From the NCBI GenBank assembly GCA_037200925.1, contig JBBCGO010000001.1:888235-952234 (forward strand): DNA of 64,000 bases, in the 5' to 3' direction. Under the pieces are notes generated by a model. That model was not told where the DNA came from and made no database searches. It saw only the letters and a program-made list of their open reading frames with translations. Of the stretch, positions 24,631-44,196 are shown one piece after another (position 1 is the first letter of the stretch; every line of letters begins with the position of its first letter). Made by a program: the position numbers and the translations under genes. The DNA comes from Candidatus Doudnabacteria bacterium. GTDB taxonomy: Bacteria; Patescibacteriota; Doudnabacteria; UBA920; O2-02-FULL-48-8.

Positions 24631-24851
24631 TATTTTTTCTTGGCGATTTTAAGACCCGCAAACTTGGAAGGTTTGCGCAGTGATAATCCATGCACCCGCA
24701 TTCGCGGGCGCTTTTTTATTTCTCTTTTTTCTGCTTTGAGATTGTGTTCGGTTTTTTGTCTCATATTTGATATGATACGAGTCTGGAGGATCAATGGAGG
24801 ATCAGCCTGAGAATAAGGTGCAAGACTGCTGTTTATTTTGCTTCCGGCCAA
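24630..24851 (-). CDS. Small basic protein upstream of miaA, function unknown.
   Basis: Lys/Arg-rich tail (RMRVHGLSLRKPSKFAGLKIAKKK). No confident ribosomal-protein match. The true start may be the internal MRQKTE. Confidence 0.3.
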   Translation of the reverse strand: MAGSKINSSLAPYSQADPPLILQTRIISNMRQKTEHNLKAEKREIKKRPRMRVHGLSLRKPSKFAGLKIAKKK

Positions 24852-25054
24852 TCCCTCAGGAATCAGTGGAATCGATCAGTACTCCTAACGGGGTTTTCTG
24901 CAACTTCGGCCATCAGGTGAAACTCGCAGGCTACCTCTATATCTGCGAACTGGCGACAAAGGAGTCGCAGAAGTATCCAAAACACGAGGTAGACTTCGGG
25001 CTCGCGAATGCATATTTGATCGAAATGCTTGCCGCTTCTAAGGCCAAAGCCTAG
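24794..25054 (+). CDS. Small Cys-rich hypothetical protein.
   Basis: 86 aa with CC..C..C..C residues. It overlaps the neighbouring small ORF on the opposite strand, so one of the two may be spurious. Confidence 0.25.
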   Translation: MEDQPENKVQDCCLFCFRPIPQESVESISTPNGVFCNFGHQVKLAGYLYICELATKESQKYPKHEVDFGLANAYLIEMLAASKAKA

Positions 25055-30000: not shown

Positions 30001-30510
30001 TTCGCGGGTTTCAGAATCGGATTTGTTCATGACGGCCCGGGCCAACTCGCCTCGCTGGCAGCCTGATAGGGCAATCAGCCCCTCGCTGTGTTTTTTTAAA
30101 ACCTCCAGGTCAATCCGGGGTTTATAGTAATAGCCGTCGATATGGGCTACGGTCGTAAGTTTTAAAAGATTTTTGTATCCTGCCTGATTGGCCGCCAGCA
30201 GAGTCAAATGAAAATAGTCAGAATCAATCTTGCCATTTTTTTCTTGCAATGTCCGCGGGGCTACATAAGCTTCAACGCCGATGATCGGTTTGATCCCGGC
30301 TTCTTGGCATTTATTATAGAATTCAATGGCGCCGTACATCACCCCGTGGTCGGTCAAAGCCAAACTGTCCATGCCGAGTTTCTTGGCGGTGGATACCAGT
30401 TCGTTTATTTTCGGCAGTCCATCAAGCAGGGAAAAGTGCGAATGGACGTGCAAGTGAGTGAATTTGGACATAAGTAAGTCCATTATGGCAAAAGTCGCGT
30501 TACAGCGCAA
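27049..30510 (-). CDS. dnaE: DNA polymerase III alpha subunit.
   Basis: PHP domain 'HLHVHSHFSLLDG' plus polymerase core and OB-fold, 1153 aa. The start may be an internal Met (MDLLMSKF...). Confidence 0.85.
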   Translation of the reverse strand: MRCNATFAIMDLLMSKFTHLHVHSHFSLLDGLPKINELVSTAKKLGMDSLALTDHGVMYGAIEFYNKCQEAGIKPIIGVEAYVAPRTLQEKNGKIDSDYFHLTLLAANQAGYKNLLKLTTVAHIDGYYYKPRIDLEVLKKHSEGLIALSGCQRGELARAVMNKSDSETREILQKYLDIFGPDNYYIEIQRNSRLPDANEKKLVQKLAALAKAENLTLVATADCHYIEPQDAEAQDVLLCIGTGRTTSDTDRMDMRGYDLSLKTEEKMYERFKDLPEAVANTALVAAKCNLKILTNQRYFPKVEVPEGKTTAEYLRELTYARALPLYGKDGAVPDDIKQRIDYELNIIINKGFDTYFLMVADVVEGAHKLGAITNTRGSAAGSIVGRILGITNVDPLYYELPFERFLTEHRPTPPDIDLDIADNHRDEVISYITKKYGAEKVAQIITFGTMMARAAVRDVGRALGVAYGKCDQIAKMIPTGKQGFHMTLDKAMDLNTDLKAAYEKDPETKKILDIAKKLEGNARHASVHAAGIVITPTELTDYMPLQKEPDGERVITQYDMYALDVNASGEKALGVVKLDLLGIRNLSTLEAAVKIAEKRQGVQIDIANLPHPDEKTFKLLSEGHTFGVFQMGSSGITRYLMDLKPKSIFDIMAMIALYRPGPMGIIPEYITRQHKRSKIEYFDPRMQAYLGRSLGLLVYQDDVLTTAVNIAGYSWEEADKLRKAMGKKIPAEMAKQKEKFIKGCVKNGMEPYRAEQLFGLIEPFAAYGFGKAHAASYGIVSYQTAYMKANYTVEFMAALMTAESGDMETIAEAVEECKIMGIQVLPPDVNESLANFTVIDERNIRFGLTAVKNLGSDIISIIIEQRKAGGKFSSVEDFVKRVQTRNFNKKSWEAMAKSGALDALGERNKLLANTEIILEFARNLQKAAADNQTSLFGENFIPDAKLKLRDVEPATERERLAWEKELLGLYVTSHPLAEHAAKLQRSALSIKQVIENRTPTATIGGIITRVQKILTKKGDQMAFIDLEDTTGTIEVIVFPNLFSQFKDLIVAEKIVLMTGKMSDKDGEPKFLADTIKLFAETTAPSQESSVTIKIPTAASDELFGQLKQLFESAPGDLNVNLMIDQQKIKTPFRIDLNEELKSKIKELLGSNLP

Positions 30511-30551
30511 AAAGTGATATAATTAGTCAAGATTTAAGACTTGAAACAAAT

Positions 30552-31394
30552 ATGGCACTAACGGATAACGACAGGATTCAGGAGTTATTTCTGGTCGTCG
30601 GCGACAAACTCGCTCCCGTGAACAAAAAATGGTGGTATGCCCTGGTCATTTTTCTGATCGTGCTGATCCCGTTTTATTATTTGGCGAAATATTCCTTCGT
30701 ACAACTGATAATGAGCGGATATCATGCGCCGGAAATAGTTTATACTGCGGGGATCCAGGAATCTTTACAGATAATCGACAAGAAAATTTTTATTCTTGCG
30801 CCGAACACATATTCAGGTTACGTGAAAATAAAAAATATCAATCTGGAATGGGGAGTGCCCAGCCAGGATTATACGGCGGAATTTAAAACTTTGGGCGGGA
30901 CCAGTATTGCAAAAATAAGCGATTCAACGTTTATCCTTCCGGCTTCCGAAAAACTAATCGTTTTTCCGCGTTTTACCTCACAAACCAAACCCGATGAGAT
31001 CGACGTGACTTTGGGTGAGACGCAGTTTATCCAAAAACCCGATGTGACGGTCAATTATGAACTTCAACGCGTGAATCTTCAGAATAACCCCGCAGGCTTT
31101 TCTATGACGGCCGGGATAAAAAACACAATGGCTTTCACGGTCGGGCAGATCGATCTGCCTGTAGCTGTTTACGACAGCAATAATAATATAGTTGCCGTCA
31201 ATTTTACGACCATTAACGATGTTCTGTCCGGTGAAACCAGGACATTCACATATTCCTGGCCGGGCGCAGTGGCCGGCGCAGTCCGGGCGGAGATCAATCC
31301 GGAGATCAATATATTTGACCGGAATATATTTTCGCAGCCCGCCGGAGTCTCGCCATTCGACAGTTCAACGCAGCCCGCGCCCGCATCTCCATGA
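30552..31394 (+). CDS. Membrane-anchored hypothetical protein.
   Basis: N-terminal TM 'WWYALVIFLIVLIPFYYLA' and a beta-rich ectodomain. Its stop overlaps the start of the SEDS gene. Confidence 0.4.
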   Translation: MALTDNDRIQELFLVVGDKLAPVNKKWWYALVIFLIVLIPFYYLAKYSFVQLIMSGYHAPEIVYTAGIQESLQIIDKKIFILAPNTYSGYVKIKNINLEWGVPSQDYTAEFKTLGGTSIAKISDSTFILPASEKLIVFPRFTSQTKPDEIDVTLGETQFIQKPDVTVNYELQRVNLQNNPAGFSMTAGIKNTMAFTVGQIDLPVAVYDSNNNIVAVNFTTINDVLSGETRTFTYSWPGAVAGAVRAEINPEINIFDRNIFSQPAGVSPFDSSTQPAPASP

Positions 31395-32494
31395 GAAATT
31401 GGTTTGCGAATTTCCGTTATTTTGACCTTTATATTTTCGGCAGCAGCACTCTGCTGCTGATTTTGGGTTTGCTCATGATCTATTCCACCACGCTTGCCAG
31501 CCCGACCAATCTTCTAAGCCATCAGCTGGTGTTCGCCGTCCTGGGATTTATTGCGATGTTCCTGCTGGCTTTTTATGACTACAGAAAACTTAAAAAGAGT
31601 ACGGGGTTTTTCTATGTCCTGATCATATTAAGCCTGCTGCTGGTGTGGTTCTTGGGCCATAATGTCCGCGGATCGACCCGGTGGATCGATCTTGGGATCT
31701 TCCGCGCCCAGCCGGCGGAGTTTGCCAAACTGATAATGGTTGTGATCATGGCCAAATTCCTGGATCAAAGCGGCGAAAAATTGAAAGACATCAGGTATGT
31801 TCTCCTGTCGGCTGTTTATGTCAGCATTCCGGCAATACTGGTCTTGATCGAGCCGGACCTGGGTTCGGCCCTGGTTATTTTTTTCACCTGGCTGGGCATG
31901 CTGCTGTTCTCCAAGATGAATAAAAAACATTTGGGCATCCTGCTTTTAATTGCCGTCCTGGTTTCTTCCTTCAGCTGGTTCTTTGTGCTCCATGATTATC
32001 AGAAAAACCGCATTTATACTTTTTTGGACCCGAGCCAGGATCCGCGGGGCAGCGGCTATAATGTCCTGCAATCAATAATCGCCGTAGGCTCAGGCAGCAT
32101 TACGGGCCGGGGAGTGGGCAGGGGGCTGCAATCCCAGCTGAAATTCTTGCCGGAGCGGCAAACTGACTTTATCTTCGCTTCTACTGCAGAGGAATTGGGC
32201 TTGGTGGGAAGCCTGTTCATCCTGAGCATGTTCGCCATATTGTTTTTCGGCCTGGTCCGGGCGATCAAGCATGCCAGGGATAACTTCGGAATGTATCTGA
32301 CCCTGGGGATTTTTTTCATGCTATTGTCGCAAGTGCTGATAAATATCGGCATGAATGTCGGACTGCTTCCCGTCACCGGCATTCCTTTGCCGCTTTTAAG
32401 TTACGGCGGATCCTCACTTCTGACCACTATGGCGGCACTGGGATTAGTGCAAAGCGTTGTGGCCCGCCAGAAGGCTGTGAAGTTCGGCAACTGA
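31391..32494 (+). CDS. ftsW: SEDS-family peptidoglycan polymerase (FtsW/RodA).
   Basis: Ten TM helices and conserved 'LPERQTDFIFA', 'GLLPVTGIPLPLLSYGGSS'. Confidence 0.75.
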   Translation: MRNWFANFRYFDLYIFGSSTLLLILGLLMIYSTTLASPTNLLSHQLVFAVLGFIAMFLLAFYDYRKLKKSTGFFYVLIILSLLLVWFLGHNVRGSTRWIDLGIFRAQPAEFAKLIMVVIMAKFLDQSGEKLKDIRYVLLSAVYVSIPAILVLIEPDLGSALVIFFTWLGMLLFSKMNKKHLGILLLIAVLVSSFSWFFVLHDYQKNRIYTFLDPSQDPRGSGYNVLQSIIAVGSGSITGRGVGRGLQSQLKFLPERQTDFIFASTAEELGLVGSLFILSMFAILFFGLVRAIKHARDNFGMYLTLGIFFMLLSQVLINIGMNVGLLPVTGIPLPLLSYGGSSLLTTMAALGLVQSVVARQKAVKFGN

Positions 32495-32540
32495 TCTTTG
32501 GTTGACGCCAAAAATATTAGCCCTTACAATATAAGCATCT

Positions 32541-32897
32541 ATGCCGAAGTTTGATTTCAACAAAATCGTCCAGTGGCTGGCTTATATTTTGAAGTGTCCG
32601 GTTTGCGGGCACCAGTATACGCCGGAACAAACCAAGATCATTGATACGGGGGAAGAAAAACCGCTTTCCGGCCGCAGCCTTCTGGTCCACACTGACTGTG
32701 ACCGGTGCAAAAGCTCGGTGGTATTTTCCATTGCGATTGACGGACCCGAGATCTTTTCCATCGGCATGGTGACAGACCTGACCAGCCAGGATACATCCAA
32801 ATTTAAAAATGCCAAACCTATCACCACGGATGAAGTTTTGGCTACTCACGAATTTTTAAGGGGTTTTGACGGGGACTTCAAATCTGCTTTGAAATAG
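32541..32897 (+). CDS. Zinc-ribbon hypothetical protein.
   Basis: CPVCGHQY...CDRC four-Cys ribbon. Confidence 0.35.
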   Translation: MPKFDFNKIVQWLAYILKCPVCGHQYTPEQTKIIDTGEEKPLSGRSLLVHTDCDRCKSSVVFSIAIDGPEIFSIGMVTDLTSQDTSKFKNAKPITTDEVLATHEFLRGFDGDFKSALK

Positions 32898-32937
32898 CTT
32901 TGACCTATTCATCAGAAGATGTTATTATATTGCGGCT

Positions 32938-33639
32938 ATGGAAAATATTGCAATTGAAGCGACCAAACGAACTATTTTGGGCAAACGGGTAAAAACATTG
33001 CGTCAGGCAGGAAAGCTGCCCGGCATTTTGTATGGGCACAATACAGAGACAGCAGAAATCGAAATTAAGGAAAAAGATTTTTCCAAGGCATTTAAGCAGG
33101 CGGGTGAATCAACGCTGGTCAATCTGGTTATGGACGGCAAAACCACGCCGGTCTTGATCTACGATGTCCAGCACCACTATCTGAACGGCCAGCCACTGCA
33201 TGTGGATTTTTATGCCGTGAACATGACCGAAAAACTGAAGGTCCGCGTGCCAATCCAGTTCACCGGCGAATCGCAGGCGGTAAAGGGCTTAGGCGGGACT
33301 TTGCTTAAGAATCTTTCCGATGTTGAGGTGGAATGTTTGCCGGCTGATATTCCTAAATATTTTGAAATCGACATCAGTTCGTTGAACACATTTGAAGATG
33401 CTATCCGCATCCAGGACCTGAAAGTCAGCGACAAGGTAACAATTCTGGCTAAACCGGATGAAGTGATCGTCAATGTCGCGCCTCCCCGAACCGAAGAAGA
33501 GATGAAAGAATTATCCGAAAAACCGGTTGTTGAAGATGTAACCTTGGTTGAAGGGGTATTAAAGCCGGAAGAAACTCCTGAGGCAGTAGCAGGGGATGAG
33601 AAGGCTGAGAAGCCGGAGAAAAAAGAAGAGAAAAAATAG
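32938..33639 (+). CDS. rplY: 50S ribosomal protein L25 / general stress protein Ctc.
   Basis: 'RTILGKRVKTLRQAGKLPGILYG...LHVDFYAV' with a Glu/Lys-rich C-terminal extension. Confidence 0.75.
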   Translation: MENIAIEATKRTILGKRVKTLRQAGKLPGILYGHNTETAEIEIKEKDFSKAFKQAGESTLVNLVMDGKTTPVLIYDVQHHYLNGQPLHVDFYAVNMTEKLKVRVPIQFTGESQAVKGLGGTLLKNLSDVEVECLPADIPKYFEIDISSLNTFEDAIRIQDLKVSDKVTILAKPDEVIVNVAPPRTEEEMKELSEKPVVEDVTLVEGVLKPEETPEAVAGDEKAEKPEKKEEKK

Positions 33640-33641
33640 CT

Positions 33642-34550
33642 TTAGCTTATAGTTGATAGGTTTTGTAGAATTGCAAACCTCTCAAATCCGGATAAATCTT
33701 TATAAATTTTTGTTTCAAAAGCTGGTAAATATTTTTTTACCAGCTTTTTGATTGCCGGGCCGTGGGTCTCGCCGATCTCAAGGAAGAGAAATTGAGGCGC
33801 TCTTGTCATCCCGGACTTGATCCGGGATCCAGATAAAGAACTTTTTGTCTGGATTCCCGCTTTCGCGGGAATGACAAAAGAAATTTGCTTGAAAAGCTCT
33901 TCCAATAATCCGAGTCCTTTTTTTTCCGCGATTAAAGCTTGTTTCGGTTCAAACTTGGTTGATGCGTCAGTTTCTTCAGCCAGGTAAGGCAGATTGGCCA
34001 CAATAATATCGAAATGCTGTTTTTTCCACGGGGTCAAAAGCGAGCCGTGTTTGAAAATAATTTTAACTTTATGCTGTTTGGCATTCTTTTTTGCTATTAA
34101 TAAAGCGGCTGGTGAAATGTCCGAGGCGAAATATCGATTTTTTGACCCAAGTTTTTTTGCCACGCTTACGATAATATTTCCTGAGCCGGTCCCGACATCC
34201 AGAATGTTTAAGCCGTTTTTGATGCCAATAGTCTTCATGGCCAATTCCACCAGACCCTCGGTTTCGGGGCGGGGGATCAATACGTTTTCATCAACGTAAA
34301 AACCAAGGCCATAAAATTCTTTTTTTTTGGCCAGATAAGCAACAGGCCAGCCCATCAGCCTGCGGGTTAGAAATATATGAAATCGTTTTTCCAGCTTCTG
34401 ACTGACCGTTTGGCCGGGATTGGCAAGCAGATATTCTTTGGGCTTATCCAAGACATGCGACAAAAGCACTTCCGCATCCAGATCCGGGGAAGCGCTTTTT
34501 GATCTGGATAATCTTTTTGCGGCTAAATTTAGCAGTTCCCGAACCGTCAT
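33642..34550 (-). CDS. prmC: Release-factor glutamine methyltransferase PrmC/HemK carrying an in-frame repeat-element insertion.
   Basis: SAM motif '[11 protein letters not shown]' and a catalytic 'IVANLPY' motif (NLPY rather than NPPY). It overlaps the prfA stop. A 25-aa insert ([25 protein letters not shown]) is encoded by the palindromic element at 33804-33876. Confidence 0.8.
33804..33876. repeat. MITE/RPE-like palindromic element, copy C, inserted in frame in prmC.
   Basis: tgtcatcccggacttgatccgggatcc ... ggattcccgctttcgcgggaatgaca: two hairpins bounded by TGTCAT/ATGACA. The 73 nt plus 2 give 25 codons. Confidence 0.6.
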
Positions 34551-35602
34551 TTTGCAATTGATTCCAATTGCCGTTTCTGGTCTTCGGCGATCATGGCTTG
34601 GGTGATTTGTTCCATGTTTCCTTCCATGATCGTCTGGATCTGGTTCCAGTTTTGGTTGATCCTGTGGTCTGTGATGCGGTCCTGGGGGAAATTATAGGTC
34701 CGGATCTTTTCCGACCTATCCCCGGTGCCGATCTGGGATTTACGTTTGTCGCTTAGTTCCTTTCTTTTGCGCTCTTCCTCGAGCGCGAGCAGGCGGGCGC
34801 GCATGACATTCATCGCTTTTTCTTTGTTCTGTGATTGAGAACGCTCGTCCTGGATGACCACGACAATTCCGCTTGGAATATGCGTTAAGCGGACAGCGGA
34901 ATAAGTGGTGTTTACGGATTGCCCGCCGTGGCCGGATGACGTGGTAGCTTCAAATTTGATATCTTTCGGGTCTATCTTAAAATCAACTTCTTCGATCTCT
35001 GGCATGACCGCCACGGTAACAGTTGATGTGTGCACTCGCCCTGATTTTTCCGTTTCCGGGACCCGCTGCACCCGATGTACGCCGGATTCGTATTTAAATT
35101 TACTGAAAGCCGCGCGGCCCAGGATCTCAAAAATGATCTCTTTGAACCCGCCGATAGAGGTGCGGCTGGAAGAAAGAACGACGATTTTGTACTTTAACTT
35201 TTCCGCGTATTTTGAATACATCCGGAACAATTCGGCCGCGAACAGCCCGGCCTCATCGCCGCCGGCACCTGCGCGGATCTCCACGATAGTGTTTTTTTCA
35301 TCATATGGATCTTTGGGCAATAAGGCCTGCCGCAGGCTTTCGGCCAGTTTTTCACGCTCGGATCGCAGGGTAGGGAGTTCTGAGGCAGCCATGTCGGATA
35401 ATTCGGACCCTTCGGCAATCATTTTTTCATGCTCAGCGATCTCGGTTTCCAGTTTTTCCAGCCGGTTGATCTTCTCGATCATAGGCAAAAGCTCGGATTG
35501 CCGTTTCCCTAAGCTCGCCAGTTGTTTGCGGTCAGTGGTTTGAGAAAGCTTTTCCGAAATATCGCCGTATTCTTTTTTGATATGGTTATATTGGAGTTCC
35601 AT
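34547..35602 (-). CDS. prfA: Peptide chain release factor 1.
   Basis: GGQ motif '[11 protein letters not shown]', a PAT-like tripeptide '[17 protein letters not shown]', 351 aa, followed by prmC. Confidence 0.85.
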
Positions 35603-35663
35603 AAAGGTTTAAACAAAAAACAGGCCTTAATATAATTCTATATCAGTAGCCTGTTTTTGTCAG

Positions 35664-35912
35664 TTAAGCAGCTGCGAGTTTTTTGCTGATGCGCTTAGAT
35701 TTCATTTCTGCAGACTTGGTGCCGCGTTTCTTGAATTTATCGATCGTGCCCGCCACATCAAGCAGGTTTTGCTTGCCGGTATAGAACGGATGGCAATTTG
35801 AGCAAATTTCAACATGCAGTTCCTGTTTGGTGGAACCGGTGATAAAGGTGTTGCCGCAGGCGCAGACGACTTTGGCATCAGTAAAATAAGTCGGATGTAT
35901 GTCTTTTTTCAT
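35664..35912 (-). CDS. rpmE: 50S ribosomal protein L31.
   Basis: 'MKKDIHPTY...CACGNTF...[12 protein letters not shown]'. Confidence 0.85.
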
Positions 35913-35934
35913 AACTACAAAATTATATCGCAGA

Positions 35935-35963
35935 TTGACAGAAAAGTCAACAGGGGATATGAT
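35935..35963 (+). promoter_or_regulatory. Consensus sigma-70 promoter driving the island operon.
   Basis: TTGACA (35935-35940), 17-nt spacer, TATGAT (35958-35963). The first gene has an AAGGAAGGAGG SD. Confidence 0.5.
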
Positions 35964-35988
35964 TGTATGTCAAAAGGAAGGAGGACAC

Positions 35989-36096
35989 ATGAAGTTGGTG
36001 TATGCACTTTTTGGGCTAGTGGCACTTCAATGTGTCTTTCTCGTCTGGAGCCTGATCAAACAGCAACTACGCCGCAACCAAAGGTCAAAGAGGTGA
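35989..36096 (+). CDS. 35-aa single-TM peptide with a basic C-terminal tail (type-I-toxin/holin-like shape), island gene P1.
   Basis: MKLVYALFGLVALQCVFLVWSLIKQQLRRNQRSKR, with a strong SD and promoter directly upstream. Confidence 0.4.
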   Translation: MKLVYALFGLVALQCVFLVWSLIKQQLRRNQRSKR

Positions 36097-36100
36097 GTAG

Positions 36101-36664
36101 ATGAACACGCAACTTGAACTGATGCTGAAGGTTTGGGAGAGGCTGAACAACGAAGTGCTCCAGTACATGCGCATGCTGGACTATTGGATAATGTTCCTGA
36201 TCGCGCTGCTCGTGTTCCTCATCTACGCTTCGCGACAGGAAGGTTATCGCGATTTCATTGTCTGGGCCGCTGTCACGGGCGCTATTACGCCGGTTTGGAT
36301 CGGCAGGATAGACGTGCTGATTCACAGGCCGGTGCCGGCCACGATCGCGATCGAAGAGGAGATCAATGAATACCTGAGGCGCGATCCATCAGGGGAGCGG
36401 TTGAGGGAGGAACTGAAGCTTGGTCCGAGGTTTAAGACCTGGGAAAATTACTACAAACCCGGACTCAAGACCGGCGTCAAGATCCTCGTCCCTTTGGATG
36501 CTGTTGCGCTCGTGTTCCTTCTTTTCCTGTTCGCGCATGCCAACAACCGCGCGGCTCAATTCCTTGCGGACACAGGCTGGTCGGGCGTTTTCTGGTGGGG
36601 GTGCTGGGTCGTCTTTGTGTGCGGCGTCGGCATAATTGCCGCAGCCAAACCACTGGCGGAGTGA
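36101..36664 (+). CDS. Integral membrane protein, island gene P2, no recognisable domain.
   Basis: 187 aa with TM segments 'YWIMFLIALLVFLIY', 'ILVPLDAVALVFLLFLF', 'GVFWWGCWVVFVCGVGIIAAA'. SD GAGGTGAG. G+C-rich. Confidence 0.45.
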   Translation: MNTQLELMLKVWERLNNEVLQYMRMLDYWIMFLIALLVFLIYASRQEGYRDFIVWAAVTGAITPVWIGRIDVLIHRPVPATIAIEEEINEYLRRDPSGERLREELKLGPRFKTWENYYKPGLKTGVKILVPLDAVALVFLLFLFAHANNRAAQFLADTGWSGVFWWGCWVVFVCGVGIIAAAKPLAE

Positions 36665-36681
36665 AGCTGGGAGGAAAAAAC

Positions 36682-36978
36682 GTGACGCTGATCCTGGTAA
36701 TATTGGCAGCCGCTGCAGGTTTCGCGGCCGGAATACTGTACCGCCATTGGAATCAGTTGCCGGAGACTCGCGAACTTGGGGTATACCGCACCTGGCTCTG
36801 GCGGTCAGACATGAATGACGGCCCGATCAATCAGCCCGGAACAAAGTTCAGATTCAGCCTCGACGGCCGCAAGAGCATCTGGTGGGCGCAGGTTAAACCT
36901 GACGGCAGCGTAGGACCGGGAGAACTGGTGGCAGAGCCGCTCCCTTATCTGGAAGGTCCGCCAGTCGCGATCCATTAA
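36682..36978 (+). CDS. Membrane-anchored small protein, island gene P3 (GTG start).
   Basis: GGAGG then 8 nt then GTG. TM 'LILVILAAAAGFAAGIL' then a soluble domain of about 70 aa. Confidence 0.4.
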   Translation: MTLILVILAAAAGFAAGILYRHWNQLPETRELGVYRTWLWRSDMNDGPINQPGTKFRFSLDGRKSIWWAQVKPDGSVGPGELVAEPLPYLEGPPVAIH

Positions 36979-37054
36979 GCCCTCCGGGCAATCCGGTCGG
37001 CTTCTTTTTTTGGCTAATTTTGCTAGAATGTAATGAACTTCAGCAGGAGGATCC

Positions 37055-37609
37055 ATGAAGCCTAAGACCAAACCTTTGCATGAGTTTGAAATAGCGCAGT
37101 ATGCCGTGTATATGGCGCTACAACAAATGCAGAAAGAGATAGAAACCGGAGTTGAAGGATTCATTTCAAAATATCTTCGGATCTGCGGCGCCTTGGCGGT
37201 TGCGATCATTCTCGCGTTTTGGATGGGCGGTGCGATCCATCCGATCCGGTGGGGGTTGGTCGGTCTGAAATGGACAGCGATCGCGTACTGCACGCTGATC
37301 CTGCTTTGGACCTGCAGGGTTAAATTCTTCATCAACCGGGACCGCCGGCGGGGGATAAGCGAAGTCAGGCGTTTAAAGGCACTGCTTCGGAGGTGCTTGT
37401 TCAAAGGCAAGTGCCTCAATCGCCGCACAAAACTGCATCTAGCCAGAAATTATTTTGTCTGGTACGGACTGGGAATGTTCGGGAATCCCGGCCTTGCCGT
37501 CTGGTTGTATGTGATCAAAGCCAGAGCTTTCGTTTGTTGCTACTTTTTTCTGTTCACCGGCCTGTTCCGGCTGCGGAAACTGGATCAGCAAAATGCAGCC
37601 AATCTGTAA
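37055..37609 (+). CDS. Integral membrane protein, island gene P4.
   Basis: AGGAGG SD. TM helices 'ICGALAVAIILAFWMGGAI', 'WTAIAYCTLILLW', 'LAVWLYVIKARAFVCCYFFLFTGLF'. 184 aa. Confidence 0.45.
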   Translation: MKPKTKPLHEFEIAQYAVYMALQQMQKEIETGVEGFISKYLRICGALAVAIILAFWMGGAIHPIRWGLVGLKWTAIAYCTLILLWTCRVKFFINRDRRRGISEVRRLKALLRRCLFKGKCLNRRTKLHLARNYFVWYGLGMFGNPGLAVWLYVIKARAFVCCYFFLFTGLFRLRKLDQQNAANL

Positions 37610-37638
37610 GATTGGCTTTTCTTTTTGCTCAGTACCTA

Positions 37639-37660
37639 AGTCATGAGCATGCTCATGACT
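37639..37660. repeat. Perfect 22-nt palindrome AGTCATGAGCATGCTCATGACT (copy 2 of the island-associated motif).
   Basis: Its own reverse complement. The core is shared with 17471-17500. It lies 30 nt after the P4 stop. Confidence 0.65.
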
Positions 37661-37707
37661 AAAACACGGTCAGCTTAGTTCAGTCAGGTTTTTTACAAAA
37701 AAAAGAA

Positions 37708-37727
37708 CGGTTGCATATGTACAACCG
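37708..37727 (-). terminator. Hairpin plus T-run terminator for the convergent island gene P5.
   Basis: cggttg-catatgta-caaccg stem-loop, followed on the minus strand by TTCTTTTTTTT. Confidence 0.45.
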
Positions 37728-37742
37728 CTCGAAAAAGAAGCG

Positions 37743-38417
37743 TCAGAGACTGGGAACTGCGATGATCTTTCCATCAACCTCGATCAGATCCTGCAGTCCA
37801 TCCCAGCCGTAGAAGTACTCGGATTCGATGCCGCGCCGGCCAATATAGATGACCTTGAGAAACGGGTCGGCGCCCAGCCTATGGACCTCAAATTCGGCTT
37901 GGGGAAGTTTGTGGCAGATCCATTTCATCAGCATCAGCCCCGGATGAGGGATATCCCGGTTGCGATGAACCGGGCTGATGGTCCACTCATAATTAACCGT
38001 GCGTGCCGCCGCCGTGTCCAGACCGCTTTCCGCGTAGGAGAACGCGACTAAAGCTGCGACCGAGAGGATGAATCCCGCAGCCGGATAGAACGTGAGCGAT
38101 GTCCATCCTAGGCTCGCGAAGTTCGTTGTGAGGTGATCAGCAACCAGGGCCAGAATGCCGATCACGATCCCGAGAGCTGAGCCCAAAGCAGTCCACATGA
38201 TCGCACAGCAGAGCTTATGGATGCCGGCCAGCAGGCGTGGTTGTGCCACGGCCATGCGTTCAGACCAGCAGGCGGCGGCCAGCGCCTCTTGCCGTACTTG
38301 GGCTTTGTACGCTGACACGGCGTCAGGTGAGAACACGGTGATCTGCAGATCTTCCAGGACGTTGGCCAGGGTCGGAGTCACAAGAACAGGTCGCGCCGCA
38401 AACACAGCAGTTCCCAT
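37743..38417 (-). CDS. Membrane protein, island gene P5: cytoplasmic N-domain, two TM helices, C-terminal domain.
   Basis: AGGAGG SD. TM 'AIMWTALGSALGIVIGILALV' and 'FYPAAGFILSVAALVAF'. 224 aa, G+C-rich, no recognised domain. Confidence 0.45.
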   Translation of the reverse strand: MGTAVFAARPVLVTPTLANVLEDLQITVFSPDAVSAYKAQVRQEALAAACWSERMAVAQPRLLAGIHKLCCAIMWTALGSALGIVIGILALVADHLTTNFASLGWTSLTFYPAAGFILSVAALVAFSYAESGLDTAAARTVNYEWTISPVHRNRDIPHPGLMLMKWICHKLPQAEFEVHRLGADPFLKVIYIGRRGIESEYFYGWDGLQDLIEVDGKIIAVPSL

Positions 38418-38630
38418 ACCGCCTCCTTGAGAAAAGTTAAGATTATTTTATCATAAGCTGGTTTTGGTTTCCATTTCGTCTTGCCTTGATCTTGGTTTTA
38501 TGATAGAATCTTTGGGTTATTAATCATACATGTTCTCCTGATGTATTTGGGGCCTGTTTTAAGGTTCAAGACAATGAATCCTTAAGATCCCAAAGCAAAT
38601 GACGGGAACAGAAGTATAAAGGACATAATT

Positions 38631-39362
38631 ATGAAACCCATCACTCTGATGGATATGTTGAAAGCCGGAGTCCATTTCGGCCACAAAACTTCTTTGTGGA
38701 ATCCGAAAATGGCGCCTTTTATTTACACTCAGCGCAACAACATCCACGTCCTGGATCTGGAGAAGACCAAAACCAAGCTTGCCGAGGCTTTGAATTTTGC
38801 CAAAGATACGGCAAGCCGGGGCGGCATAATTTTGTTTGTCGGCACCAAGCGGCAAGCCAAAGAAGAAGTGCGCAAAGCGGCCGAAGTCTGCAATATGCCG
38901 TACGTGGTGACCCGCTGGCTGGGAGGCACATTTACGAATTTCCGCACTATCCAGCGCACGATCAAGAAAATGGAGCGCTACGAAAAAATGATCGCAGACG
39001 GCGAGATAAAGAAGTACACCAAAAAAGAGCAGTTGATGATCGCCCGCGAAGTTACGAAGATGAAAACATTTTTTTCCGGCATCAAAGACATGAAGAAACT
39101 GCCGGAGGCGATATTCGTGCTTGATTCCAAATACGATCACATTCCGGTGGAAGAAGCCCGCCAGTCAAAGGTCAAGATCATCGGCCTGGTGGATACGAAT
39201 GCCGACCCGACCAACATTGATTACATGATCCCGTCAAACGACGATGCAATTAAGGTTATTACATTCATGGCACAGGCTATGGCTGATGCGATCAATGAGG
39301 GACGGGCGACTATGGCCCAAGCCATCATGACGCAAACCGAAGGCGCGGCCGTTGCGAAGTAA
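38631..39362 (+). CDS. rpsB: 30S ribosomal protein S2.
   Basis: 'MLKAGVHFGHKTSLWNPKMAPFIY...IHVLDLEKT', 243 aa. Confidence 0.9.
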   Translation: MKPITLMDMLKAGVHFGHKTSLWNPKMAPFIYTQRNNIHVLDLEKTKTKLAEALNFAKDTASRGGIILFVGTKRQAKEEVRKAAEVCNMPYVVTRWLGGTFTNFRTIQRTIKKMERYEKMIADGEIKKYTKKEQLMIAREVTKMKTFFSGIKDMKKLPEAIFVLDSKYDHIPVEEARQSKVKIIGLVDTNADPTNIDYMIPSNDDAIKVITFMAQAMADAINEGRATMAQAIMTQTEGAAVAK

Positions 39363-39384
39363 TAAATAATAAAGTAAAAATCAT

Positions 39385-39972
39385 ATGAAAATTACACCAG
39401 ATGATATAAAAAAATTAAGAGATGATACCGGCGCCGGTATGCTGGACGCCAAAAAAGCTTTGGAAGCATCAGAGACTTTTCATGATGCAATAGTTTTTTT
39501 GCGCAAGAAAGGCCATGCCACGCTGGCAAAAAAATCCGACAGAGTCGCCAAAGAAGGCCTGATCACTTCCTACATCCACGCCGGCGGCAAAGTAGGCGTT
39601 TTGCTGGAGCTCAATTGCGAAACGGATTTTGTGGCGCGTAATGAGGAATTTAGGGAGTTGGCCAATGAAATATCTCTCCATATCGCGGCTGCGTCGCCGC
39701 TGTACGTTTCGCGCGAACAAATTCCGGCCAATGCCATAGATAATGAGAAACAGGTATATCTGGAGCAGGTAAAAGACAAACCTGAGAAGATGAAAGAACA
39801 GATCGTGGCCGGCAAGCTTGAAAAATACTATGAACAGGCGGCTCTCTTAGACCAGTCGTATGTTCGGGAGCCTGAGAAAAAGATCAAAGACCTGATCGCG
39901 GAAAAAGTCGGCAAGCTTGGTGAAAATATCCAGGTCCGCAGATTCGCCAGGTTTGTCCTGGGGGCGGAATAA
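39385..39972 (+). CDS. tsf: Elongation factor Ts.
   Basis: 'ITPDDIKKLRDDTGAGMLDAKKAL' UBA-like N-terminus, 'LLELNCETDFVARNEEF'. Confidence 0.85.
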   Translation: MKITPDDIKKLRDDTGAGMLDAKKALEASETFHDAIVFLRKKGHATLAKKSDRVAKEGLITSYIHAGGKVGVLLELNCETDFVARNEEFRELANEISLHIAAASPLYVSREQIPANAIDNEKQVYLEQVKDKPEKMKEQIVAGKLEKYYEQAALLDQSYVREPEKKIKDLIAEKVGKLGENIQVRRFARFVLGAE

Positions 39973-39974
39973 TC

Positions 39975-40856
39975 ATGATCTTATTTATCGCAATTTTATT
40001 CGTCGCTTCAGTTCTCGTGATCGTGAGCATGTTTTTGGTAAAGCTCGCGCAACTGAACCAGCGCCCGGTGGTGAGGGTCAAACTTGCAGGCGTGCCGCCG
40101 AATTATTATGAGACTTTATGGCCTTATTTCAGACAGAAGCTGGTATTTATCGCAAACAAACTCTGGCGGTTCATTCTAGAGGCAAAAGACCTGACTCCTG
40201 CCGCCACTAAAACCCTGCAAACTTCGGTTGCGAAAGCCAAAAATGTTTTCCGCATCCGCATCCGTTCTTCGGCCTCAGAACCGCAATGGCTTCCGGAAGC
40301 GGCGGAGTTGAGCATTAAGCCGACCGTATCTCAGAATCCGGAAGATCTTTATCTGGAAGCGATCAAAAAAAATCCGAACGACAAGCAGGCTTATGAAGCT
40401 TTGGGCCGCCTGTATCTGCAGAACAAGAATTATTCTGATGCATCGCAGACCTACGAGTATCTGACCAAGCTCGATGCCGGCCGCGATATCTATTTTTCGA
40501 ATTTGGGATTGGCATATTACTCTCTCGGCGAATATCAGAAAGCCGCGGCATCTTATGAGAAGGCGCTGAATATCAACAATAAAGTCGCGACCCGCTGGAT
40601 CAACCTGGCGCTTTGCTTTGAAGCTCTGGATGAGTTCACGAAAGCGGTGAAAGCCATCACGCAGGCTTTGGTACTGGACAAGCTGAACGTGAATTACCTG
40701 ATGCTTCTGGCGGATACCTACATCATGCTTGATAACAGTATCCGGGCAGAAGAAGTTTTAGAGCAGATCATGTCCATGGATCCCATGAACAAGCCGGCTC
40801 GCGAGAAGCTGATGAAACTAAAAGTAAAATATAAAGGGGTCGGGATAAAGTATTAG
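39975..40856 (+). CDS. TPR-repeat protein with an N-terminal TM anchor.
   Basis: TM 'ILFIAILFVASVLVIVSMFLV', then TPR-like repeats (AYEALGRLYLQNKNYSDASQTYEY, LGLAYYSLGEYQKAAASYEKAL). Confidence 0.6.
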   Translation: MILFIAILFVASVLVIVSMFLVKLAQLNQRPVVRVKLAGVPPNYYETLWPYFRQKLVFIANKLWRFILEAKDLTPAATKTLQTSVAKAKNVFRIRIRSSASEPQWLPEAAELSIKPTVSQNPEDLYLEAIKKNPNDKQAYEALGRLYLQNKNYSDASQTYEYLTKLDAGRDIYFSNLGLAYYSLGEYQKAAASYEKALNINNKVATRWINLALCFEALDEFTKAVKAITQALVLDKLNVNYLMLLADTYIMLDNSIRAEEVLEQIMSMDPMNKPAREKLMKLKVKYKGVGIKY

Positions 40857-40895
40857 GGTTGGAAAAAGTTCGTAAATTTGCTAAAATGTTCTATT

Positions 40896-40969
40896 GCCCC
40901 CTTAGTTCAGTGGCAGAACAACAGTTTTGTAAACTGTAGGCGGTAGTTCGATTCTACCCGGGGGCTCCA
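40896..40969 (+). tRNA. tRNA-Thr (anticodon UGU).
   Basis: GCCCCCT...CGGGGGCTCCA with anticodon loop TTTGTAA and T-arm GGTAG-TTCGATT-CTACC. Pair 7-66 is a mismatch. Confidence 0.75.
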
Positions 40970-41107
40970 GAAAAATCTGTTGCGAATAACACTTCACAAA
41001 ACATGAGGCGCAGCGTAGCGAGCACATGTTTTGTGAAAAAAGGAGCAGTATGCCGACCGCAGCACAATCGCTTATGCGATTTGCGAAGGTTCGGCCAACT
41101 GCGACGC

Positions 41108-41194
41108 GGGCAGGTAGCGAAGTGGTCAAACGCGGCTGACTGTAAATCAGCTGGCCTTGCGCCTTCATAGGTTCGAATCCTATCCTGCCCACCA
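41108..41194 (+). tRNA. tRNA-Tyr (anticodon GUA), type II.
   Basis: GGGCAGG...CCTGCCCACCA with anticodon loop CTGTAAA, a long variable arm and T-arm TAGGTTCGAATCCTA. Confidence 0.8.
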
Positions 41195-41265
41195 AGAAAA
41201 ATTCCTGACCTTGTGTCGGGAATTTTTCTTTTTGTTGCATGAAGGGATTCGAACGGGTTGAAATA

Positions 41266-42672
41266 TTAGAAACTGATTTGAAAAGTCGGATTATCCATGC
41301 TTGTCCAATCATTTCCTGTGCTGCCGCCCAGGTCTTGATTTTTTAAACCTACTGAATACAATATTTTTTTTGTTGCCGAATATCGGATAGGCTGATGGTC
41401 GAATGGATCCTGCGGAACTGCAGTAAGATATTGAGGGACAAGCTCTGCGAGCGTATTTGGAAGCTGGCCTTTGTCCATTTCATATTCCTTGATAGCCAGT
41501 TCAATTTGGGCGACGTTGGCAATTAGATCATTCTGGCATTCTTTTGTTACCACACTTCCTAACGAAACAGCGAATGTGGAAAACAAATTTTTGCCGATAG
41601 CATTTTCAGCAAACGGCAAGTTTCGGCTCGAAATATCGACTGCAAACTGACTCAGAGTAGTGTTCAGTTGTTGGTTTGATTCAGCTAAATCGCATTTCAC
41701 TCCGATTGCTGCAACCTGGGAATTATATAAATTTGTAAATAAATTTTTTGTTTGATTAGGTTTGTAGTAGTAACCATATTTGGCGTATTTAGCATAAGCA
41801 AAAGAACTGACGTCTCCATCTTTTACCGTCTGAGTAATTTGGTTGGAAATATTCGTATAATCAAACCGGAAACCATCCTTATAACCCTCTAAATTATTAC
41901 TGCTGTCCTGAAGGGTTGTTCTGACCGTTTCTAAAGTTTGCTTACCCGGATTATTAAAAGGCAGAATCCGCAGGATCGTTTGGGAGCCTAGTTGTCTTAT
42001 TGCCAGGCCGACCAGAACTCCGATGAGGCCATTGTGGCCATTGATAATATTGTATCCGACTTTATTTAGTTTCGCGGCTTCCAGCAGAGCTTCATCAGGT
42101 TTTCCCTGAGCTGACAGTGATAAGGCTTTAATGGCTTGAAGTCTTGCTGCGCTTCGCCAGGTATTCGTCGGAGGCTCGGCAGTATTGGGATTAATGTTAA
42201 TAGGATTCGCATAATCCGGGACCTGAACGTGACCTTTACCGGCGGCGGCATCAAACAAGCTCAAGGCTTGCTGGTTTTGACTCAGCACCTGATCTACCAA
42301 GTGCTGATCCCATTGCACGGGTTTGGTGAAGTCGGTATATTCAAGGTCAAAGGCGATTTTTTGGTCATTGCTCGGCACGTTGATCATCGTCGGCGTTATT
42401 TTATTTAGATCATAAAAACCGTTGTCAGCATCCGGCACTGAAACTTTTTGCAGTGTCAATTGAGAATCGTCAATCAATGTTGCATCACCGGGATGCAATA
42501 CAGTTAAAATGAACGGCAAGAAATAAATCCCTGCGCCGATCACTATTATCAGAATAACCAAAATCATTAGGATTTTTTTCCATAGTTTCATTTTGTGCTT
42601 CGGCGGAGGCTGAAGGGGAACAGAGGCAACTGTCGGGGATTCGGCTAATTGGTTTTGATTGTCATTTTCCAT
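41266..42672 (-). CDS. Membrane-anchored, largely extracytoplasmic hypothetical protein.
   Basis: N-terminal TM 'ILMILVILIIVIGAGIYFLPFIL' and 468 aa with no recognised catalytic motif. Confidence 0.45.
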   Translation of the reverse strand: MENDNQNQLAESPTVASVPLQPPPKHKMKLWKKILMILVILIIVIGAGIYFLPFILTVLHPGDATLIDDSQLTLQKVSVPDADNGFYDLNKITPTMINVPSNDQKIAFDLEYTDFTKPVQWDQHLVDQVLSQNQQALSLFDAAAGKGHVQVPDYANPININPNTAEPPTNTWRSAARLQAIKALSLSAQGKPDEALLEAAKLNKVGYNIINGHNGLIGVLVGLAIRQLGSQTILRILPFNNPGKQTLETVRTTLQDSSNNLEGYKDGFRFDYTNISNQITQTVKDGDVSSFAYAKYAKYGYYYKPNQTKNLFTNLYNSQVAAIGVKCDLAESNQQLNTTLSQFAVDISSRNLPFAENAIGKNLFSTFAVSLGSVVTKECQNDLIANVAQIELAIKEYEMDKGQLPNTLAELVPQYLTAVPQDPFDHQPIRYSATKKILYSVGLKNQDLGGSTGNDWTSMDNPTFQISF

Positions 42673-42818
42673 ATTTTTGTTTCGTTTACATCAATTATGA
42701 TTATTTGCTTAATTATAGCTCTTGATTGGTCATTAAACAAGTAATTGCGTGCATTTTTCCGTTTTTTGACGAATGTGCTATAATGTTGGCAATCATTATA
42801 ACCACTAGAGATAAAAAT

Positions 42819-43259
42819 ATGAGCGAAAAAAAGACCAAGATCTTAATTGTTGAGGACGAGGAAATTCTGCTGACTGCGCTTTCTGAGGAATTGACTCAGG
42901 AGGGATTTGCGGTTGCGGGAGCCAAAGACGGGGTGGAAGGTGTGGAAAAGGCCGTATCCGAAAAGCCTGATTTGATCCTTTTGGATCTGGTCATGCCGCG
43001 TCTGGACGGGATCGGAGCATTAAAAAAAATGAAAGAGAACCCGGTAATCAAGGAAATTCCTGTGGTGATCCTGACCAATTTGTCGGATTACGACAAGGTT
43101 TCAGATGCCCTGTCTTTAGGCGCCATGGATTATTTGGTAAAGGCCAATTACCGTTTGGATGAATTGGTGAACAAAATTAAAACAGTGCTTGAGCGAAAGC
43201 AATCCGGTGTGCTTACAGCGCCGGTTCAGCCGCCCCCGGCTCCGCCGCCAACCGCCTAA
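42819..43259 (+). CDS. Response-regulator receiver-domain protein (CheY-like, no output domain; Pro-rich tail).
   Basis: 'KILIVEDEE', 'LILLDLVMPRLDG', 'PVVILTN', 'AMDYLVK'. Likely start at MSEKK (42819) downstream of a TGcTATAAT extended -10 box at 42775-42783. Confidence 0.7.
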   Translation: MSEKKTKILIVEDEEILLTALSEELTQEGFAVAGAKDGVEGVEKAVSEKPDLILLDLVMPRLDGIGALKKMKENPVIKEIPVVILTNLSDYDKVSDALSLGAMDYLVKANYRLDELVNKIKTVLERKQSGVLTAPVQPPPAPPPTA

Positions 43260-43467
43260 GTTTTTGCGAAGCCTGTTTTATTCCGTTTGGTTCAGTTTTT
43301 TAAGTTAGGTTTTTCAAACTTGGCGGCAAAAGCCGGAATACTTAAAAACAATGGCGAATGCGCATCTCTGAATCAATTCAATTTTTTTCTTGTCGACAAT
43401 CTATAGTGTGATTGTCTTTGTTTTTATCAGGGAAATTAAAGCTTGACGAAATGATAGCCACAAAATA

Positions 43468-44196
43468 ATGCCAGAATCAAAAAAACCCCGAAAAAAACAT
43501 CACAAGGATATCCAGTCAGATTTTATTAATCTGACCTCGCACCAGCTGCGCACTCCGCTTTCCGGAAGCAAGTGGCTTTTGGAGCTTTTGCAGAAACCGG
43601 GCACCGGGAGCCTGAATAAAAAGCAGAGGGATTTTTTGGAAAAGATCAATATCGAAAATGAACGCATGATCGCTTTGGTCAATGACCTGCTGGAAGTCAC
43701 TCGCATTGAGGCCGGACAAACCAAGCTTTACCTGCAGCCCACGGACTTGACCACGGTCATCCGAGGATTGATCAAAGAAAAAGGAAAAGAAGTCAAGAAA
43801 AAAAGGCTGCAGATCGTTTTTACCATGCAGCAAAAGCCTTTCCCTCTAGTGCGCACCGAAATGAATAAGATCAGGCATGCCATGTCGAATCTGCTTTCCA
43901 ATGCCATTGCATATACGCATGAAGGCGGAAAGATCACAATCGACCTGCAGGTACAAGACGGCATGTTGCTGGGAACGATAAGCGATACCGGAGTTGGTAT
44001 TCCCAAAGATATGCAGGACGAAATATTTACCAAGTTTTTTCGTGGCGCGAACGTCACCAGCCTGGAAACAACCGGTACGGGTTTGGGGTTGTATATTTCC
44101 CGGGCTTTTATTGAAGCCTCCGGAGGCAAACTCTGGTTTAAATCAAATGAGGGCCAGGGCACCACGTTTTATTTCACGTTGCCGATAGTAAGATAG
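43468..44196 (+). CDS. Cytoplasmic sensor histidine kinase (HisKA plus HATPase_c).
   Basis: H-box 'LTSHQLRTPLSG', N-box 'LLSNAIAYT', G-boxes 'DTGVGIP' and 'GTGLGLYIS'. No TM segment. Confidence 0.7.
   Translation: MPESKKPRKKHHKDIQSDFINLTSHQLRTPLSGSKWLLELLQKPGTGSLNKKQRDFLEKINIENERMIALVNDLLEVTRIEAGQTKLYLQPTDLTTVIRGLIKEKGKEVKKKRLQIVFTMQQKPFPLVRTEMNKIRHAMSNLLSNAIAYTHEGGKITIDLQVQDGMLLGTISDTGVGIPKDMQDEIFTKFFRGANVTSLETTGTGLGLYISRAFIEASGGKLWFKSNEGQGTTFYFTLPIVR

Follow-up and report, generated by a model that had tools for sequence, protein, structure and literature searches.

A probable accessory-gene hotspot, free of integrases, between rpmE and rpsB of Candidatus Doudnabacteria, with a conserved expression platform on the left

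Hotspots of horizontal gene transfer (HGT) that are free of mobile genetic elements (MGEs) have been described between core genes, and double homologous recombination in the flanking sequence was given as the source of their diversity (Oliveira et al., 2017; PMC5635113). In this work we analyzed a comparable locus in a 64,000-nucleotide (nt) stretch of DNA (the window) from a metagenome-assembled genome (MAG) of Candidatus Doudnabacteria, a lineage of the candidate phyla radiation (CPR, or Patescibacteria). Five open reading frames (ORFs), P1 to P5, lie here between rpmE and rpsB and are referred to as the island; comparison with related species makes it probable that accessory genes come and go in the rpmE-rpsB gap of Doudnabacteria, as in a hotspot that works without an integrase; the left end of the gap is a conserved expression platform. 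As in the hotspots described before, the same pair of core genes encloses differing accessory genes, empty sites included, and mobility genes are lacking. Unlike there, species of a CPR class are compared and not strains of one species, and one edge carries a conserved promoter, Shine-Dalgarno sequence (SD) and micro-ORF, which fall outside the hotspot definition. Another precedent is the hypervariable hotspot lmo0443-lmo0449 of Listeria, which is reported to hold SSI-1, SSI-2 or a single gene (PMC5541211). Both loci have alternative short inserts of one to a few genes at a fixed site between conserved genes; the Listeria inserts have assigned stress functions, whereas no function can be assigned to the products here, which are mostly membrane or secreted proteins. 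Integrons possess a Pc promoter that reads into exchangeable cassettes, together with intI and attI/attC sites. The gap resembles them in that a fixed promoter at the edge drives an exchangeable first cargo gene while the platform stays, but it has no intI and no attI/attC sites (no repeated imperfect palindromes between genes), and P4 and P5 have putative promoters and terminators of their own. Phage morons are autonomous promoter-gene-terminator units with deviating G+C content; P4 and P5 are likewise predicted to be self-contained units of deviating composition, but they stand in no prophage context. A classical genomic island would share the deviating composition found here, while its integrase, insertion at a tRNA gene and att repeats are absent. 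The type of locus is already known; the promoter-micro-ORF platform, the families P1, P2 and P4 and the constant G+C content of P2 are the new details.

Related loci are labeled L. Of these, 18 further Doudnabacteria-type loci were gathered via the conserved neighboring gene x118, and they reveal a hypervariable rpmE-rpsB gap. Both flanks of the gap are available in 13 species: the window (W), L003, L007, L011, L013, L014, L017, L018, L019, L021, L025, L026 and L028. In all 13, the gap is enclosed by prfA-rpmE (left) and rpsB-tsf (right); it measures 159 to 4,893 bp and has at least seven unrelated contents. The flanking genes of the window are where the original prediction had placed them: rpmE, for ribosomal protein L31 (35664-35912, minus strand; PF01197), with 80-93% identity across related species, and the conserved rpsB, for ribosomal protein S2 (38631-39362, plus strand; PF00318). 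The closest species sampled, L011 (RF1 83% and L31 93% identical), has an empty gap of 211 bp. It is collinear with the window at 29295-35954 and again at 38498-40822, and the segment in between (35955-38497) amounts to 2,543 bp in the window and 32 bp in L011. The right border of this variable segment is formed by the rpsB promoter (TTGCCT-17-TAGAAT) and the conserved rpsB leader (38481-38630, plus strand; 89% identity to L011), and the junctions of the segment coincide exactly with conserved promoters. The gap is also empty in L028 (159 bp) and nearly empty in L017 (447 bp). Elsewhere it is filled differently: L019 (676 bp) has P1 and a 67-amino acid (aa) protein with two transmembrane (TM) helices; L013 (1,030 bp) has P1 and a secreted protein ending in FFGYGG, which is homologous to the product of the gene after P2 in L004 (L004_140, E 1e-22); L021 (1,508 bp) has P2 and a convergent gene for a 235-aa protein; L026 (2,671 bp) has two ORFs that by eye are purN-like (256 aa) and purD-like (423 aa; 13909-15960); and L025 (4,893 bp) has a P4 homolog next to rpmE, then a 197-aa secreted protein and a 991-aa surface protein. 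The gaps of L018 and L014 are 923 and 1,177 bp long. At 58-60% G+C, the purN- and purD-like ORFs exceed their flanks (46%), and a strong SD precedes the purD-like one; if the two identities are confirmed, they would indicate metabolic gene acquisition at the same hotspot. We also observed that the 235-aa ORF of L021 (15994-16701, minus strand), in the position of P5, contains CAE...PCxxC, by eye like the zinc motif of cytidine/deoxycytidylate deaminases.

Elements of the island occur separately in related species: P2 without P3-P5 in L003, L007, L021 and L008, the P4 homolog without P2 in L025, and P1 before unrelated cargo in L013 and L019. The joint neighborhood of five proteins for which the original prediction had proposed to search is not conserved, and an all-against-all comparison of the accessory proteins from the first ten loci gave no further links. 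None of the ORFs in 35913-38630, each of which was scanned, had any domain match, to an integrase or recombinase or otherwise; there is no tRNA gene within 2 kb and no att-like repeat, just repeats of 12-21 nt at chance level.

The left edge of the gap is more constant than its content. A platform motif, TTCATANC-N6-AT-NN-TA-N-C-N4-ATTGAC-N6-GTCAA, is present in six species, namely the window (scored via its identical copies L001 and L002), L008, L013, L014, L019 and L021, and had no match in the viral contig scan. From the rpmE start outward the platform reads CAT, about 20 nt, AGATTGACA-N6-GTCAAG, a TATGAT-like -10 box, about 15 nt, GGAAGGAGGA, about 5 nt and a start codon. Within it, the TTGAC/GTCAA palindrome combines the -35 boxes of the rpmE promoter and of a divergent promoter that reads into the gap and is interlocked with that of rpmE; L011 retains this palindrome only, in degenerate form. 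In the window, the promoter-like site of rpmE (TTGACT-17-TATAAT, 35922-35950, minus strand) has 9 nt between its -10 box and the rpmE start codon, leaving a short leader or none. Interlocked with it face to face is the promoter into the gap, the slot promoter of sigma-70 type (TTGACA-17-TATGAT, 35935-35963, plus strand), which the original prediction had pointed out and which has 11/12 matches; its -35 box lies in DNA common with the empty-site species and its -10 box in the variable part. The conserved SD GGAAGGAGGA of P1 follows (35976-35985, plus strand; -11.0 kcal/mol; identical in L008 and L013), and then P1 itself (35989-36096, plus strand), a peptide of 35 aa with one TM helix and a basic tail.

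Peptides of the P1 shape (30-41 aa) stand behind the platform SD in four species: the window (MKLVYALFGLVALQCVFLVWSLIKQQLRRNQRSKR), L008 (41 aa, MTEAQAIRAVLFVTLIVLFGCVLRIKQLERRKKRSSKLRNK), L013 (30 aa, MQIVAIAIVFLSLIIRRILVIRRNQLRKKR) and L019 (38 aa, MDSWTIFILLAAFVFSFVFGIQMSMKRRSQRKIRKRRS). The purine-rich codons of the basic tail are at the same time the SD of the next gene in all four. P1 ends with AAG AGG TGA in the window and in L013, with 4 nt (window) or 5 nt (L013) to the next ATG; in L019 its stop codon overlaps the next start codon (ATGA), and L008 has TGAGGTGATCATG. The first cargo gene thus has its SD within the end of the P1 reading frame, a classic arrangement for translational coupling, and its translation probably depends on that of P1. 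The gene after P1 is P2 in the window, a distant P2 subtype (30% identical) in L008, the gene of the FFGYGG protein in L013 and that of the two-TM mini-protein in L019. The window and L013 have the promoter, SD, P1 and AAG-AGG-TGA SD in common, yet their next genes are unrelated. The promoter and P1 are common to species with other cargo, and therefore they belong to the framework and not to the imported cargo.

P2 (36101-36664, plus strand; WDN47_05270 at NCBI) is the first cargo gene of the window, with 55.9% G+C and a G+C content at third codon positions (GC3) of 0.72. Its product has 187 aa and about four TM helices, with the motifs R-x-D-x-L-I-H-R-P after TM2 and G-W-E-N-x-Y-K before TM3. 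In a 12-member alignment E18, H75, R76, E85, W114, E115 and K119 are invariant, while R69 and D133 are kept in at least 90% of the members; by eye, and following the positive-inside rule, the invariant polar cluster appears to face the cytoplasm. Members of the family have about 165-215 aa, about four TM helices, E in the N-terminal helix, H-R and W-E..K. Three relatives (67, 59 and 46% identity) were found among 5.8 billion proteins, and a P2 profile matched eight clusters (E 7e-68 to 8e-4) among 1.84 billion cluster representatives; the first scans of genome and metagenome contigs with the P2 alignment found no relatives, and the profile had no match among PDB sequences. An AF2 model of P2 (pLDDT 79) is an all-helical bundle with generic fold matches only. 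The 12 P2 homologs gave nothing above threshold in Pfam, NCBIfam, PADLOC or PHROGs. Below threshold, residues 7-67 of the homolog P0009, which comprise the N-terminal helix and a TM hairpin, align in the same register with PF18181 and PF14015 (13.0 and 10.9 bits, gathering cut-offs 24.7 and 26.3; 1/12 members), one of the 12 homologs has a PADLOC match at E 0.77 and one has a sub-threshold match to a holin PHROG (E 0.017). Likeness to SLATT/DUF4231 (PF18181, PF14015) is limited to these P0009 matches, and P2 differs in having two further TM helices and conserved motifs of its own.

The family is tied to the locus. P2 lies between rpmE and rpsB in the window, L003, L007 and L021, and beside rpmE or rpsB on the partial contigs L005, L006 and L008; the gene order dnaE-x280-ftsW-x118-L25-prmC-prfA-rpmE and rpsB-tsf-TPR (tetratricopeptide repeat protein) is kept in L003 and L007. 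Two distant members are found elsewhere, one near a zeta toxin (L009) and one near a Gp49/helix-turn-helix (HTH) pair (L010). Despite their distant P2 proteins, these two loci have an upstream sequence in common, CCCTTCTAAGTTCAT...GTGGATTTGGAAGGGAAAT...ATTTCTGTAGGAGGAA (L009 2851-3000, L010 3410-3570), which may be a regulatory element of the 5' untranslated region, as CCCTTC and GAAGGG could pair. P2 identities are 68% for L003 and L021, about 46-48% for the window and L003, 45% for the window and L021 and 26-30% for any pair with L007, against 69-85% for RF1, S2, Tsf and L31 in all pairs. The flanks of L008 are close to those of the window (67% for the TPR protein), yet P2 is 30% identical. 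In a single-gene neighbor-joining (NJ) tree of RF1, species with P2 are interspersed with species without it.

The original prediction had judged the interval to be richer in G+C than its surroundings, and this is correct: 35935-38440 has 53.8% G+C against 46.6% for the whole window. The island is the highest-G+C 2.5-kb segment of the 64 kb (about +3 standard deviations) and also its strongest tetranucleotide outlier (z = 4.4). At synonymous third positions (GC3s), P2 with 0.70 (z = 2.9) and P5 with 0.65 (z = 2.1) are above all 54 host genes. The G+C content of first and second codon positions (GC1+2) is raised as well (z about 4 in P3 and about 3.5 in P5), so that the amino acid make-up adds to the excess: island proteins are enriched in Trp (5-fold) and Cys (4-fold) and depleted in Lys, Asn, Asp and Ser. 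The G+C excess thus resides partly in synonymous sites and partly in amino acid composition. Indistinguishable G+C content and codon usage had been named beforehand as grounds for giving up the idea of an acquired segment. G+C and GC3s do set the island apart, but in their preference among synonymous codons P2-P5 fall among the host genes (z -1.3 to +0.4), and therefore nothing in codon choice beyond G+C points clearly to a foreign source. Genes of the P2 family have 51-57% G+C and a GC3 of 0.56-0.74 at every locus, while the measured host flanks have 38-46% G+C. L007 is the extreme case, where P2 has 56.6% G+C and GC3 0.74 and the host genes have 37-41% and 0.31-0.41. Expression-linked codon bias was considered as the cause and rejected because in L007 the composition of rpsB and tsf is that of the host (GC3 0.36-0.37 vs 0.74 for P2). 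Either the P2 family circulates from a G+C-richer pool, or its G+C-rich codons are selected by something.

The second of these possibilities belongs to a vertical history of the locus, which we consider rather unlikely. P1-P2, and perhaps P4, would be ancestral in the gap and would have undergone differential loss and fast divergence, with G+C and SD kept by selection, for example because membrane proteins led by an SD have to be expressed in a genome with many short-leader or leaderless genes. Such a history would account for a P2 family in the same gap in at least seven loci, including the divergent P0011 of L007 (E 2e-11 to the profile), and for a slot promoter that is interlocked with the rpmE promoter and kept in six species. 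It also agrees with the host-like codon preference, with the family-wide G+C richness and SD, and with a level of divergence between the window and L003 that is equal for P2 (46%) and PrmC (45%). However, the GC3 of P2 (0.56-0.74) does not track the host GC3 (0.31-0.55) though the lineages are synonymous-saturated, and this requires strong, unexplained selection; moreover, the P2 identities are incongruent with the flank identities, the closest species, L011, has a clean empty site, and the same gap holds cargo that is clearly non-ancestral (the ORFs that look purN- and purD-like by eye, the 991-aa surface protein). The original prediction would have been given up if the five proteins had clear housekeeping homologs syntenic with rpmE and rpsB; homologs of P1, P2 and P4 are indeed syntenic there in related genomes, but they are patchy accessory genes and not housekeeping genes.

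In the hotspot reading, double homologous recombination in the conserved flanks would bring cargo in, exchange it and remove it, and P2 and other G+C-rich cargo would come from a pool that is richer in G+C than any sampled Doudnabacteria genome. The products may be small envelope proteins of an episymbiont, with a surface, host-contact or phage-contact role. Several points weigh against this reading. The host markers give a star-like tree, and for this reason the incongruence between P2 and the host is only suggestive; ancestry plus losses could equally account for finding P2 at one and the same site in at least seven loci. Host-like codon preference in P2-P5 does not resemble a fresh foreign origin, and no donor of the G+C-rich cargo was found, the P2 family being confined to Doudnabacteria-like contexts in the searches. 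Recombination in the flanks is a presumed mechanism, the comparison of P2 with the flank genes having covered pairwise identities and a single-gene NJ tree, and the envelope role is suggested by the TM and signal-sequence features of nearly all cargo. As to the platform, P1 is present in just 4/6 loci with the motif: in L014 the reading frame breaks off after its third codon, and L021 has P2 immediately behind the platform SD, without P1.

A more far-reaching idea, which we regard as speculative and quite unlikely, is that the promoter-SD-P1 element is an integrase-free cassette platform for envelope proteins, with P1 as a membrane-targeting, translation-coupling leader. Translation of the P1 TM helix would carry the ribosome-mRNA complex to the membrane, and the SD inside the basic tail would pass the ribosome to a membrane or secreted cargo gene recombined in behind P1. 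Cargo including P2 would circulate among CPR genomes via the conserved rpmE and rpsB homology arms.

Next to its composition, the island stands out by its SD sites, as the original prediction had remarked. The anti-SD duplex energy is -10.1 to -11.0 kcal/mol in all five island genes, while 0/55 host genes (energies taken at the start of the longest ORF) reach -10 kcal/mol and just 5/55 reach -8 kcal/mol (Fisher's exact p about 2e-7 for the contrast, by our own arithmetic). A strong SD is found in every P2 homolog inspected. Among the host genes, 11 out of 55 have a TATAAT-like hexamer that ends 4-13 nt before the start codon, whereas 2.1 are expected at random; examples are rpmE (35913-35930), clpC (upstream of 16576) and L25 (upstream of 32938). 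As -10 hexamers are five times more frequent near starts than at random and an SD is missing from most host genes, leaderless or short-leader mRNAs are suggested to be frequent in this organism. A literature search on SD and leaderless usage in CPR found nothing relevant.

The island was also thought to contain a tight operon of four genes. P1, P2 and P3 are indeed tightly packed, with a 4-nt gap and then an overlap, but a 76-bp spacer separates P3 from P4. It contains a terminator-like hairpin followed by U7 (36977-37011, plus strand; -14.6 kcal/mol, z = -2.0) and then an extended -10-like sequence TGCTAGAAT (TGcTAGAAT; 37021-37029, plus strand), a putative P4 promoter read from the sequence, which is absent from the output of the two-hexamer promoter scan. 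P4 is followed by a terminator whose hairpin reads on both strands (37597-37625, plus strand; -11.6 kcal/mol, 0/200 shuffles fold as well), and the convergent P5 has its own terminator, with an 11-bp stem and U8 (37697-37730, minus strand; -15.8 kcal/mol, z = -4.6), and a weak promoter-like site (38445-38473, minus strand; 9/12 with TG). The island is thus predicted to comprise three transcription units, P1-P2-P3, P4 and P5, and every unit closes with a terminator hairpin. P2 and P3 would be expressed from the platform transcript, and P4 and P5 would be self-contained promoter-SD-gene-terminator units. Between the terminators of P4 and P5 there is a perfect 20-nt palindrome, GTCATGAGCATGCTCATGAC (37640-37659), the fold of which is not unusual (z = -1.2).

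P3 (36661-36978, plus strand) is an ORFan of 105 aa with an N-terminal TM anchor. It is read from a GTG at 36661, in a GTGA overlap with the P2 stop codon; an alternative GTG at 36682 would give 98 aa with a GGAGG SD 7 nt upstream. No relative was found among the loci and proteins compared, and homology to a 92-aa ORF of L003 was rejected, the two having only an AE(P/Q)LPYL heptapeptide in common (pairwise E 0.048). P4 (37055-37609, plus strand; AGGAGG SD) encodes a polytopic membrane protein of 184 aa; its homolog beside rpmE in the L025 gap (6577-7119) is 29% identical over 161 aa (E 2e-10; phmmer 3e-12). P5 (37743-38417, minus strand; AAGGAGG SD; WDN47_05285) is an ORFan of 224 aa. It is convergent and has its own terminator, as had been proposed, but it is not bitopic: a two-helix TM hairpin lies between a soluble N-terminal part and a C-terminal part of about 90 aa. 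Its AF2 single-sequence model was unusable (pLDDT 50). Among the 5.8 billion proteins both P4 and P5 match only themselves; they had no match among PDB sequences and nothing was found in the viral contig scans. No phage relatives were detected in IMG/VR, PHROGs or BFVD. The original prediction had recognized no known domain, in agreement with the lack of any match for P1-P5 in Pfam, NCBIfam, PADLOC and PHROGs, the libraries scanned.

These data bear on the proposal that the island is one acquired system, with P1 as a toxin of type I or a holin, P2-P4 as immunity proteins or partners and P5 as an accessory, acting in toxin/immunity, abortive infection (Abi) or phage exclusion. Type I toxins and holins are small single-TM peptides with a charged tail. 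The size and shape of P1 agree with them; all products are membrane proteins, the composition is atypical, the segment is missing from the closest species, and the two distant P2 homologs are near toxin-antitoxin genes (L009, L010). On the other hand, P1 keeps its position in four species and is predicted to be coupled to varied downstream genes. The only promoter-like site on the minus strand nearby, according to a consensus scan that provides weak evidence, is that of rpmE, upstream of P1; there is no Rfam match, and the context contains no endolysin, phage or lysis genes. The five genes are never found together elsewhere but occur in parts, they form three predicted transcription units, and neither the members nor the 12 P2 homologs match PADLOC, Pfam or PHROGs. 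The shape described for P1 is thus correct, but its assignment as a toxin or holin is not borne out. Likewise, the empty site of L011, the differing gap genes and the composition agree with the acquired module of the original prediction as far as a flexible genome is concerned, but not with a single toxin/immunity or Abi system, which we consider improbable. The products are perhaps not a toxin-antitoxin or defense system at all, and the analysis reveals no new system of either kind.

The region recurs in other assemblies. All of it is present at 100% DNA identity on an 18-kb Logan contig (run SRR28211699), and identical P2 and P4 proteins with equal gene spacing are encoded on a 3.1-kb contig of GCA_015689235.1; the join is therefore not an assembly artifact, and misassembly was rejected. 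In GCA_015689235.1, the annotated P4 has 177 aa (identity 100%, coverage 96% of the 184 aa in the window), and an antisense ORF of 56 aa is called at the site where the annotation of the window has P3. The antisense ORFs noted earlier as overlapping the island genes are present, among them one of 207 aa. A frame-specific codon model trained on the host recognizes P2, P3, P4 and P5 as coding in the annotated frame and 4/5 overlapping alternative ORFs as non-coding frames; the 207-aa ORF is marginal (0.02 per codon vs 0.12-0.20), and P1 is too short for this statistic. It is therefore hardly credible that the island is a chimeric MAG join or a set of chance ORFs in G+C-rich non-coding DNA (mainly P1, P3 and P5), a view for which one could cite the lack of relatives of P3 and P5, the antisense ORF annotated in place of P3 and the long chance ORFs that G+C-rich DNA gives, such as the 207-aa one, but against which stand the other assemblies, the junctions at conserved promoters, the coding scores of P2-P5, an SD of -10 kcal/mol or stronger for each gene and a terminator hairpin for each unit.

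Some further observations were made in the window. The rpsB 5' leader (about 130 nt; window 38498-38630, L011 7368-7504) is 89% identical, against about 74-78% in the neighboring coding DNA. A hairpin within it (window about 38546-38595) has compensatory changes at 7/16 predicted pairs among seven species; the sequence is a candidate S2 autoregulatory leader, and no Rfam match was obtained even at E <= 1. A second stretch that is not collinear with L011 (window 40895-43530, L011 9709-13275) surrounds the tRNA genes 40896-40966 and 41108-41191 and holds a 468-aa ORF (41266-42672, minus strand) without a Pfam match on record; this could be a further variable locus. A solitary Cys-rich ORF of 86 aa (MEDQPENKVQDCCLFCF..., 24794-25054), located between the minus-strand ORFs 23740-24630 and 25066-26874, has a GGAGG SD (-9.3 kcal/mol, rare among host genes) and GC3 0.61 and may be another small inserted gene. 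The window has eight tRNA genes in total and, upstream of rplJ, an ordinary ribosomal protein L10 leader (51967-52088; Rfam RF00557, 54.6 bits).

No function can be assigned to the products, and therefore the value of the locus is mainly that of a lead for the comparative genomics of CPR, organisms with tiny genomes whose cell-surface variation is poorly understood. The analysis defines three new families of small proteins, P1, P2 and P4, and poses a compositional puzzle in that the genes of one family keep 51-57% G+C although their genomes have about 38-48%. Should P1 and its promoter truly serve as a cassette platform, ultra-small episymbionts would have a new route to vary their surface. 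If the hotspot interpretation is correct, the rpmE-rpsB gap would be a concrete, alignable case of a CPR lineage that exchanges accessory genes of its envelope with no mobile-element machinery.

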